Assembly: GCA_048938385.1 (NCBI GenBank)
Contig: JBHLMG010000001.1
Span: forward strand, 269,044-333,043
DNA length: 64,000 nt
From: Promethearchaeota archaeon
GTDB lineage: Archaea; Asgardarchaeota; Hermodarchaeia; Hermodarchaeales; Hermodarchaeaceae
Direction: 5' to 3'
Both the position numbers and the translations under genes were made by a program. Each line of letters starts with the position of its first letter. Position 1 is the stretch's first letter. Shown here one piece after another: positions 41,932-43,738 of this stretch. The notes below the pieces were generated by a model. That model did not search any database, was not told the DNA's origin, and was given only the letters and a program-made list of their open reading frames with translations.

Positions 41932-42531
41932 ATGCCCCAACTTAGGAGTTTTACAACCACATCCATTGGGCTCCTCGCTGGGATCACAGCGTCCGTGCTG
42001 GTGTACCTTACTCACTTTAAAATCCTTTACTCGATGGTATACTCGACATATTTCGGTTTAATCAATTCACTACAGTTCTATGAAGTAGCATGGATCCTCG
42101 CTACCTTTGATTTTCTTCTCAATCTCATGAACCCTTTTTCCTTCTTTTTGTGGGTCTTAATGGCCTTCCTTTTTGCTCTGATTCTTCGAAATATGAATGC
42201 GACATTGACAGTTCTTGCTATCGCTGTGCTTCTACCAGCAGGAACATGGCTCCTCTTCGCGGTGAAATACGCGGTTTTTCTCGGATTCACGCCCCCGCTT
42301 CTCTTTGCGCTCTTTCTCTGTCGGCTTCTCTTCCCCTTGGCTCTCGTTACGACTCTGGCTTCATTAACTACGCTGCCCTTCTGGATGATTCAACGACGAC
42401 AGGGCGCCTCGGTAGAAACATCGAGGGTTGTGCAGTTTGCCTGTTCTAGTTGTGGCGCTAAGTACCGCTCTAAGCCATTGATATGTGTTGAGTGTGGGCG
42501 GGAAGGAGTGATCTATGCGGACCAGGAGTAA
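41932..42531 (+). CDS. Membrane protein with C-terminal Zn ribbon
   Basis: 4-5 TMs then CSSCG...CVECG. Confidence 0.75.
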   Translation: MPQLRSFTTTSIGLLAGITASVLVYLTHFKILYSMVYSTYFGLINSLQFYEVAWILATFDFLLNLMNPFSFFLWVLMAFLFALILRNMNATLTVLAIAVLLPAGTWLLFAVKYAVFLGFTPPLLFALFLCRLLFPLALVTTLASLTTLPFWMIQRRQGASVETSRVVQFACSSCGAKYRSKPLICVECGREGVIYADQE

Positions 42532-42605
42532 ATCCTGCTGAAACCTAAACGATGATTACTAGAATCGCAAAAAAATAGCCGTTTCATTGAGAAAAACATA
42601 AAGAC

Positions 42606-42611
42606 TTATAA
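42606..42611 (+). promoter_or_regulatory. TATA box (TTATAA) of putative small RNA
   Basis: Centred ~26 nt upstream of the 5' stem strand at 42635; A-rich BRE-like sequence upstream. Confidence 0.55.
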
Positions 42612-42634
42612 TTTACATTCATGATTATACAATA

Positions 42635-42779
42635 GCCGGTTTGGGGCAGTGGCACAATTTTAAAAAGACGCTCGATGCTCCTCATAGGCAGAATCCTCCC
42701 AAAAAAACCTCAGGCCTAAGTCGTCCTCGCCCTCCAAAATCCCTCCTCCCTCAACTGCCCTTCCGGCATTATTTTTTTT
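42635..42779 (+). ncRNA. Putative small RNA: terminal stem, CCUC-repeat loop, U8 tail
   Basis: GCCGG/CCGGC and GGGCAGT/ACTGCCC complementarity between the ends; 8 CCTC copies in 42680-42752; T8 at 42772-42779; no credible ORF. Confidence 0.6.
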
Positions 42780-42832
42780 GATCTCATGCAGAATGAATTG
42801 ACAAGATAGCACTAGATTGGATTATCTCGATT

Positions 42833-43738
42833 TCATGCCGGTGCGGCTAGGATGGCGTTTGAAATCGCGAATTCCAATACCTCTACAATCGCGTATTCAG
42901 GAAGCCCCAGGAGGAAAGCGATAGTTTTTACATCTCGTTTTCCATCTACCAGAAAAAGAACATCGCGTGCGTAAGGACCGAATTTATCAAAGAGGGCACT
43001 TCCTACTGGAGATCCCTTATCGAGAGCGGCAAGAAGGTTATTACTTCCTTCAGGGACGAAAGAGAGGTTAATTTGGCCTTCGGGCGTGGCTGGTGGGGGT
43101 AGAGGTGGAGCTGTAGCTTCAAGAGTTTCTAAGGGTGGGGGTTCCAGGGGTGGAGGTTCTAACGGTGGAGGGAGTTGGTCTTCAGGTATAGCAGTAACTG
43201 GTTCTGGAGGCGGGGTTGGTATGATATCGGGCTGGGTAGCGGGAGGGGGTGTTGGTCTAGGTGTTGGAGTTGGCTCAGTTGTAGGTTGTGGTATTGGAAT
43301 AGGCTGTGGGGGAGGTGTTGCTGGAGGAGCTGGCTCTTGAGGTTGTGGGCTTGGAGTGGGTGTAGCCGGAGGGGTTGGAGTTGGTCGGGCAGGTGCAGCA
43401 GGCATAGTCTTTAAGATATTAAGGTCAAGTTCACGAAGAGCCAAAAGGGTGGCTTTGGTTTTCACTACGGCAATTCCCAGTGAGAGGTTGGGAGGAAAAA
43501 GTACTGCGAGTAGCCAGTTGTTGGCAATTTTGGAAATCACAACTAATCCCTGTTCGGTATTCACAGTAAGTTGGCTGATTTGTCCTTGGTAAAGACTCAC
43601 CGTTTGTTTTACCATGGCCTCAGTTGTCGGGTCTAGGGTACTTTGATAGACGATATTGTCAGGTGACAAAATACAGAAAGCTTTGACCATGCGATCAAAA
43701 CGAAGGTTATCAAGAGCCCGCTGGACATCCTCTACCAT
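42833..43738 (-). CDS. Roadblock/profilin-like domain + Pro-rich linker + C-terminal wHTH-like domain
   Basis: N-terminal beta/alpha pattern ending LLAVLF..NLSLG; ~110-aa P/T-rich linker; VLFLVDGKRDVKTIA..LGL..AIVEVL. Confidence 0.75.
   Translation of the reverse strand: MVEDVQRALDNLRFDRMVKAFCILSPDNIVYQSTLDPTTEAMVKQTVSLYQGQISQLTVNTEQGLVVISKIANNWLLAVLFPPNLSLGIAVVKTKATLLALRELDLNILKTMPAAPARPTPTPPATPTPSPQPQEPAPPATPPPQPIPIPQPTTEPTPTPRPTPPPATQPDIIPTPPPEPVTAIPEDQLPPPLEPPPLEPPPLETLEATAPPLPPPATPEGQINLSFVPEGSNNLLAALDKGSPVGSALFDKFGPYARDVLFLVDGKRDVKTIAFLLGLPEYAIVEVLEFAISNAILAAPA

Follow-up and report, generated by a model that had tools for sequence, protein, structure and literature searches.

What is encoded in the gap between two convergent genes at positions 42,532 to 42,832 of a 64,000-nucleotide (nt) stretch of an Asgard archaeal genome (Promethearchaeota archaeon, class Hermodarchaeia; GCA_048938385.1, contig JBHLMG010000001.1, positions 269,044 to 333,043; hereafter the window)? 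The gap is flanked upstream by an open reading frame (ORF) of 199 amino acids (aa) on the + strand and downstream by a 301-aa ORF on the - strand, beyond which lies glutamyl-tRNA synthetase (GluRS). An earlier reading of the sequence alone (the original prediction) had placed in it an independently transcribed Asgard small RNA (sRNA), likened to Y RNAs or to a sponge for Shine-Dalgarno (SD) sites, and every one of the coordinates on which it relied proved correct when the sequence was re-read: TTATAA at 42606-42611, GCCGGTTTGGGGCAGTGG with its GCCGG from 42635, CAACTGCCCTTCCGGC with its CCGGC up to 42767, a T8 tract at 42772-42779, and eight copies of CCTC at 42680, 42695, 42708, 42725, 42731, 42742, 42745, and 42749, four of which are CCTCC. 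Eight CCTC per 110 nt is the top density of the window, and a density of at least eight is reached at just seven places on both strands of the 2.48-Mb genome; judged by eye and without gene calling, the remaining six fall in sequence that has long open frames, repeats or C skew and is apparently coding. The motif density at this locus, being the window maximum with few equals genome-wide, is thus above chance. The comparative evidence described below indicates that the gap very probably holds a real sRNA gene of ∼145 bases, as originally predicted, the gene being borne out by a class-wide promoter, a covarying closing stem, CCUC/CCUCC motifs that are predicted to be exposed, and a U-tail.

42635-42779, + strand: RNA gene, matched by the covariance model R1 (see below) at 42634-42777 with 142.6 bits

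A DNA search of relatives with a 241-nt region spanning the element detected it at 72-81% identity in all 14 of the other same-genus genomes, and the 3′ part of the region was also matched in the sister genus. The covariance model R1 (145 positions, 22 pairs) was built from the homolog alignment and applied to 19 Hermodarchaeia genomes, which represent one order, one family and two genera (g1 and g2) and are each 72-91% complete. Exactly one copy was found per genome in 18 of the 19, and in the last the 3′ part of the RNA sits at the very start of a contig, the copy being cut by the contig end. Gathering the syntenic region from relatives, which the original prediction had proposed as a check, thus gave a syntenic and single-copy RNA in 18 of 19 genomes, with an identical gene order at 18/18 loci (geranylgeranyl reductase, a 159-aa ORF, the 199-aa ORF, the RNA, the 301-aa ORF, and GluRS). 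Pairwise comparison within the genus gives mean identities of 0.80 over the RNA and 0.24 over the next 50 nt downstream, and the ∼80% identity of the RNA at the DNA level compares with protein identities of 52-65% for GluRS and 36-51% for the 199-aa ORF. Since it is present in single copy throughout the class, is better conserved than the neighboring protein genes and forms a clear promoter-to-terminator unit, the RNA is very likely functional. The alternative that the original prediction had set against itself, a bidirectional terminator region and nothing else, is ruled out by the conservation of 145 nt together with that of the promoter.

Outside the class, R1 gave no match at E<0.3 in 132 other Asgard genomes, and marginal matches in G031 and G115 (E ∼0.3) were taken as noise. 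A degenerate pattern derived from two conserved blocks was run on 185,579 species genomes and on Joint Genome Institute (JGI) metagenome contigs, where it recovered Hermodarchaeota-type contigs carrying the same RNA plus two matches only, in an 'Anaerolineae' bin and in contig Ga0247610, which lie inside other sequence and are due to chance. A synteny-guided hunt in other Asgard classes led to orthologs of the downstream 301-aa protein in families f6 and f26, where a co-directional gene follows directly and no RNA is found. A phylum-wide pattern, CCTCCTCCC...TTTTTT, was also tried and rejected, as it detected mostly promoter or SD regions of the opposite strand and one unrelated element in family f14 (see below). 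On the genomes and contigs covered by these searches, the RNA family is specific to the Asgard class Hermodarchaeia.

The elements that bound the gene are as follows:

42587-42597, + strand: putative promoter-proximal element TTGAGAAAAAC, A-rich and similar to a TFB recognition element (BRE-like), conserved in alignments
42605-42612, + strand: putative TATA box CTTATAAT, containing TTATAA (42606-42611) and lying 22 nt before A42634/G42635
42772-42779, + strand: T8 tract, the predicted oligo-T terminator and 3′ U tail, with T5-T9 at the same place in all homologs

The TATA box is kept as TTATAAT or TTTATAT in all homologs. Genus g2 has TTGCGAAAAC at the place of the g1 element TTGAGAAAAAC, giving the arrangement TTGCGAAAAC...TTTATAT, and in both genera the 22 nt between the TATA box and the first paired base are AT-rich. 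The combination of the TTGAGAAAAAC element with a TATA box is unique in the genome. The same layout is seen in this genome's genes for signal recognition particle (SRP) RNA and RNase P RNA, where a TATA box precedes the mature 5′ end by ∼22-24 nt and T5 runs lie on the 3′ side. The conserved promoter spacing and the T tract, in a layout like that of the SRP and RNase P RNA genes, therefore suggest a primary transcript that would run from A42634/G42635 into the T8 tract and measure ∼140-145 nt.

A further conserved feature precedes the promoter:

42556-42570, + strand: imperfect palindrome, present here as the degenerate copy TTACTAGAATCGCAA, from an alignment of 13 loci

In same-genus relatives (L002-L014) the palindrome reads TTGTGATAATCGCAA and is found ∼70-85 nt ahead of the start of the RNA. 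A regulator may bind there, and a regulon search with the palindrome pattern found no second intergenic copy in the organism's own genome.

The conserved promoter also bears on the possibility that the element acts in cis, either as a structured 3′ untranslated region of the 199-aa gene (41932-42531) or as a terminator shared by the two convergent genes. The element lies between convergent genes in every genome, and because there is no oligo-T between the stop at 42531 and the RNA element, read-through into it is possible. A T tract suffices for archaeal termination, however, and the 140 conserved nt exceed that need. The element is moreover preceded, at a suitable distance from its first paired base, by a BRE-like/TATA promoter that is complete and conserved, and it is far better conserved (∼80% at the DNA level) than the 199-aa protein to whose message it would belong (36-51% at the protein level). 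A purely cis-acting role is, on this evidence, very unlikely.

The RNA has a structure that its homologs preserve. The paired regions identified are as follows:

42635-42639, + strand: 5′ arm of P1, GCCGG, pairing with 42763-42767 (invariant G-C/C-G pairs and one G-U)
42644-42652, + strand: 5′ arm of P2/P3, GGGCAGU + GG, with compensatory changes at four pairs
42751-42767, + strand: 3′ arms of P3, P2, and P1 (UC-A-ACUGCCC-UU-CCGGC), with covariation
42684-42716, + strand: central conserved domain AUAGGCAGAAUCCUCC...CAGGCC, in which GGC at 42687-42689 pairs with GCC at 42714-42716

The terminal stem of the original prediction (GCCGG/CCGGC plus GGGCAGT/ACTGCCC) pairs as it had been described and carries compensatory changes in homologs. 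P2 joins 42644-42650 to 42754-42760 (GGGCAGU/ACUGCCC) and is separated from P1 by a small U-rich internal loop (UUU versus UU), and the stem can be extended beyond the earlier description by two more pairs, 42651-42652 with 42751-42752, leaving A42753 bulged. The result is an interrupted closing stem of 14-16 base pairs (bp) that encloses a G-poor, C/U-rich loop of ∼100 nt. The compensatory pairs in P2/P3 are distributed over the homologs as CG:9/UA:6, GC:11/AU:3, AU:12/GC:3/GU:4, and GC:18/AU:2. Across 21 distinct sequences, standard pairs occupy 91% of the cells of the proposed structure, as against 31-54% in controls with the 3′ partners displaced by 1-3 columns; double changes occur at six pairs, and the observed covariation score was reached in none of 500 column shuffles (0/500). 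The stem covariation that had been proposed as a check on relatives is therefore positive by both the slide and the shuffle test. Support for the structure comes from this conservation and covariation and not from folding energy, which for the single sequence is unremarkable on either strand (z = -0.95) and was unused as evidence.

Inside the GGC/GCC helix of the central domain is a hairpin, CCUCC-CAA-GGAGG in g1 and UCCCU-CCU-AGGGA in g2, one pair of which covaries (UA:17/CG:4). The copy in the window has AAAAA (42703-42707) where nearly all homologs have GGAGG, so that its CCUCC/GGAGG hairpin is lost and, with the GGAGG arm replaced, the CCUCC at 42695-42699 is predicted to be free. As a separate observation, the AAAAA change creates a minus-strand T7 run (window 42701-42707), which could stop read-through from the convergent gene.

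The enclosed loop is conserved at least as conspicuously as the stem that closes it, and its main elements are as follows:

42656-42666, + strand: U-rich single-stranded element AAUUUUAAAAA, predicted to be mostly unpaired, with a U4 core that is (near-)invariant in both genera
42667-42679, + strand: variable A/C-rich linker, in which homolog length differences are not divisible by three
42718-42735, + strand: near-invariant single-stranded block AAGUCGUCCUCGCCCUCC, with two CCUC motifs
42739-42752, + strand: near-invariant tract AUCCCUCCUCCCUC, with three overlapping CCUC motifs and a predicted probability of ∼0.9 of being unpaired across homologs

The U-rich element lies just 3′ of the 5′ arm and reads AAUUUUAAA in g1 and UAUUUUAAAC in g2. 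Other conserved loop elements are CUCCUC, AUAGGCAGAAUCC, GCCCGAGUCGUCCUC, GCCCUCC, and UCCCUCCUCCCUC, and long blocks of the loop are invariant across both genera. All homologs carry 4-9 CCUC motifs in a loop interior of 17-21% G and 29-39% C. Partition-function folds of all homologs leave this interior largely unpaired, the predicted unpaired probability being 0.66-0.95 for CCUC motifs and ∼0.9 for AUCCCUCCUCCC beside the 3′ arm. Column identity is 0.90 for CCUC motifs, 0.89 for paired positions, and 0.80 for other unpaired loop positions; the difference between motif and other loop columns has a Mann-Whitney p of 0.025, the sequences compared not being independent.

These data also bear on whether the locus might encode a small protein. 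A 46-aa + strand ORF (42641-42781) and a 50-aa - strand ORF (42660-42812) are both open in this genome, but sequence that is poor in G and rich in C is expected to contain open frames. Among the homologs every frame of both strands is interrupted or shifted somewhere, the linker indels not being multiples of three, and neither small ORF has a Pfam match. That the conserved product is a small protein is thus scarcely credible.

Is the RNA then a member of a catalogued family? The whole window gave no Rfam match at gathering scores, and in a 551-nt region searched at E≤10 only weak, irrelevant matches outside the RNA were found, with neither Y_RNA nor a snoRNA on the RNA itself. It is not the SRP RNA or the RNase P RNA, since these were located elsewhere in the genome, at C23:172545-172884 (117.7 bits) and C18:5252-5631 (164 bits), respectively, and ARAGORN detected no tRNA in the window. 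Box C/D, H/ACA and K-turn identities were rejected by inspection: there is no RUGAUGA/CUGA and there are no tandem sheared G-A pairs at internal loops, and an ACA box is absent, as the nucleotides next to the stem on its 3′ side are variable (AUUA, AUCA, GUUA, AACA, UCUA).

The likeness to Y RNAs proposed in the original prediction holds at the level of architecture only. Like vertebrate hY1/hY3, the nematode sbRNAs and bacterial YrlA, the Hermodarchaeia RNA has a two-part stem of paired 5′ and 3′ ends, a pyrimidine-rich loop and a retained oligo-U tail (PMC4726728); it differs in lacking the GUG/CAC upper-stem motif and a tRNA-like module and in being longer (135-163 nt). A true Y RNA homolog would be expected to partner an ortholog of Ro60. 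The original prediction had remarked that there is no Ro60 gene in the window, and TROVE/Ro60 (PF05731) was found in none of the 19 Hermodarchaeia genomes (0/19) by a search that did detect it in the Deinococcus and Bacteroides controls as well as in two further Asgard genomes; a search for the La domain gave no match, the control set likewise being without one. The Ro60 site of Y RNAs is formed by 7 bp of lower stem in which one bulged C faces a bulge of 3 nt (PMC4726728), whereas P1 consists of 5 bp followed by the U-rich internal loop and has no bulged-C Ro60 site. Conservation is also inverted, the loop being the least conserved part of Y RNAs (PMC4726728) and the best conserved part of the Hermodarchaeia RNA. 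The GCAGUGG/ACUGC resemblance to hY3 that had been pointed out earlier is peculiar to this genome, most homologs reading GCAGCGAC, and the Infernal comparison with the Rfam Y_RNA family that had been suggested gave no match even at E≤10. Descent from Y RNAs has, in sum, almost no probability left, and the Y-RNA reading is effectively refuted.

A literature search found no description of the Hermodarchaeia RNA, which is a previously uncatalogued family, C-rich anti-SD sRNAs as a general kind being already known. New in its design are the many motifs in one loop closed by a 5′/3′ stem, in a single-copy gene that is kept across a whole Asgard class.

What such an RNA might do is suggested by its motifs. 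Of the crude gene starts in the genome, 37% have GGAG, GAGG or GGTG between -18 and -5, most often at -16 to -10, compared with 10% for a control position, and the 16S rRNA 3′ ends of relatives read ...GGAUCACCUCCU (no 16S gene is assembled in the organism's own assembly, and the tails are taken from relatives). Because the genome uses SD sites of the GGAGG/GGTGA type and the 16S ends of relatives read GGAUCACCUCCU, the CCUCC motifs are anti-SD-like, in agreement with the original proposal that CCUCC is the complement of the SD sites used; AUCCCUCCU (42739-42747) nearly reproduces the 16S 3′ tail AUCACCUCCU. It is possible, and is our tentative preference, that the RNA acts in trans through anti-SD motifs that pair with mRNA ribosome-binding sites (RBS), tuning translation. 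By this mechanism, the RNA would be transcribed from its own BRE-like/TATA promoter and end in the T8 tract, and its 5′/3′ stem would close the loop and hold open 4-9 CCUC/CCUCC motifs in mostly single-stranded form; the exposed anti-SD motifs would pair in trans with GGAGG-type RBS, so that initiation of translation would be reduced or adjusted. The AAUUUUAAA element and the 3′ U tail may be contacted by Sm-like proteins. Three LSM genes were found when the genome was searched for Sm proteins, as had been suggested, SmAP1/2 lying at C5:26275-26466 and C23:115319-115513, and Sm-like archaeal proteins (SmAPs) bind U-rich RNA (PMC12817955), so that the U-rich element may be regarded as a candidate SmAP binding site.

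Known sRNAs provide partial precedents for regulation by RBS pairing. sRNA41 of Methanosarcina mazei is proposed to repress translation by masking RBS and is, like the Hermodarchaeia RNA, an archaeal intergenic RNA with its own promoter and exposed RBS-complementary sequence (Buddeweg et al., 2018; summarized in PMC5867862). It differs in having experimentally supported targets (ACDS operons) and shows no sequence or structure homology to the Hermodarchaeia RNA, which carries many more motif copies, and these inside one closed loop. RsaE/RoxS-type sRNAs of Firmicutes likewise have several unpaired C-rich SD-pairing motifs, as well as a highly conserved seed and a U tail derived from the terminator; they are bacterial, carry these motifs on hairpin loops and are covered by an Rfam family without a match to the Hermodarchaeia RNA, in which the motifs lie in one large loop closed by the terminal 5′/3′ stem.

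Several observations weigh against RBS pairing as the function. The longest perfect complement of the RNA in the genome is 13 nt, found at four sites and about at chance level, and when pairing with 2,170 crude translation-initiation regions was predicted, the duplex energies of the RNA did not surpass those of its reversed or shuffled versions, in output that contained implausibly large loops; any affinity for SD regions would thus be a composition effect and carry no specific target signal. The internal CCUCC/GGAGG hairpin, which is lost in the window's copy, is kept by most homologs. The conserved blocks AUAGGCAGAAU and GCCCGAGUCGU are not anti-SD-like and are unexplained by the pairing model, and the long single-stranded stretches that hardly vary are at least equally compatible with a surface contacted by protein. 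It is because of these non-anti-SD blocks and invariant unpaired stretches that pairing is put forward only tentatively and that a protein partner has also to be considered.

In such a protein model, the C-rich motifs would bind a C-rich-RNA-binding protein or one that reads the 16S tail, which the RNA would titrate or organize, comparable to CsrB/RsmZ or to Y RNAs with their loop-bound proteins; candidate partners are a KH-domain small-subunit maturation factor such as aDim2/Pno1, or Nob1. Archaeal aDim2p reportedly recognizes 16S 3′-end sequence including CCUCC, and the AUCCCUCCU tract mimics the 16S tail. The model is favored by the retention of 4-9 motif copies in every homolog despite shifts in spacing, for example through indels between genera, by a loop that is conserved more strongly than the stem, by the equal conservation of blocks that are not anti-SD-like, and by the absence of a specific mRNA target signal in the complement and duplex searches. 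CsrB/RsmZ (GGA motifs) and CrcZ (CA motifs) share with the Hermodarchaeia RNA the presentation of many copies of one short single-stranded motif in a dedicated sRNA, although the motif is another one here and its positions are fixed rather than fluid. Synteny, on the other hand, links no candidate protein to the RNA, whose neighbors are a zinc-ribbon membrane protein and a Roadblock-like protein in a block that is syntenic anyway, and the LSM proteins that are present bind U-rich, not C-rich, RNA. A role as protein decoy or scaffold ranks only slightly behind RBS pairing in probability.

The likeness to the 16S tail would also suit an RNA that works on the ribosome itself, by pairing with G-rich pre-rRNA or docking on the small subunit in biogenesis or hibernation. 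The gene is single-copy and class-universal with a layout like that of stable RNA genes, and the 16S genes of g1 have unusual insertions beside the tail. Inspection of the RNA revealed no box C/D, H/ACA or K-turn signatures, however, and this purely speculative reading is improbable. Similarly improbable is a more elaborate proposal that joins several of the above elements, in which the RNA would be a multivalent mimic of the 16S tail, an 'anti-Shine-Dalgarno decoy' ribonucleoprotein (RNP) assembled on Sm-like proteins through the Sm-site-like AAUUUUAAA and the U tail, and would gate initiation or the tail-reading 30S maturation factors; it would then constitute a Ro60-independent analogue of eukaryotic Y/sn-type small RNPs and part of a wider archaeal habit of clasped CCUCC-loop RNAs.

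The 16S insertions of g1 (L129:1310-1440, and L130 and L131, both -) measure ∼30-90 nt and lie between GUAGCCGUA and CCUGCGGCUGGAUCACCUCCU, in the putative helix 45 region just before the anti-SD tail, whereas the g2 genome (L132) is canonical and short at this site. They could represent introns or expansion segments.

The protein genes that flank the RNA are as follows:

41932-42531, + strand: 199-aa polytopic membrane protein with a C-terminal CxxC...CxxC zinc ribbon, syntenic with the RNA at 18/18 loci
42833-43738, - strand: 301-aa protein, the downstream neighbor of the RNA

The 301-aa protein is conserved to an unusual degree, its N-terminal 112 aa being 87-94% identical within the genus, as against 52-65% for the adjacent GluRS; it also comprises a Pro-rich linker (∼100 aa) that is variable and a C-terminal domain (∼80 aa) that is conserved. 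The protein has no Pfam match and only weak structure matches to Roadblock/LC7 proteins (9jue_D, E=0.048), and orthologs at 35-39% identity are present in 17/17 sampled genomes of Asgard family f6 and also in f26.

Two further observations were made during the searches. Three genomes of another Asgard genus, in family f14, share an unannotated element with CCUCCUCCCCCUCGCCACUGAUAU...GUGGCG and a T-run end, located at L102:1440-1560 (+), L101:1490-1620 (-) and G054:C8:8388-8440 with the flanks GGCUCCGUCAA / UUGACGGAGCC; it has no Rfam match and may be another C-rich small RNA. The sites C16:18562 (+) and C12:23847 (-) have in common AGTTGAGGGA(GGA)TTTCAT(C/T)GCGAAG, a strong SD-like sequence followed by ATC/ATT, which is not a canonical start, and may represent paralogous genes with non-canonical starts.

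The regulatory RNAs of Asgard archaea, the closest prokaryotic relatives of eukaryotes, are as yet poorly characterized. If the anti-SD mechanism is true, the Hermodarchaeia RNA would be a global translational regulator of undescribed design, in which one closed loop holds many copies of the ribosome's mRNA-docking sequence; should it prove to be a protein scaffold with an Sm-type site, it would be relevant to how small RNPs arose. Whichever applies, a covariance model and a defined locus are now ready for metatranscriptomic and biochemical tests.

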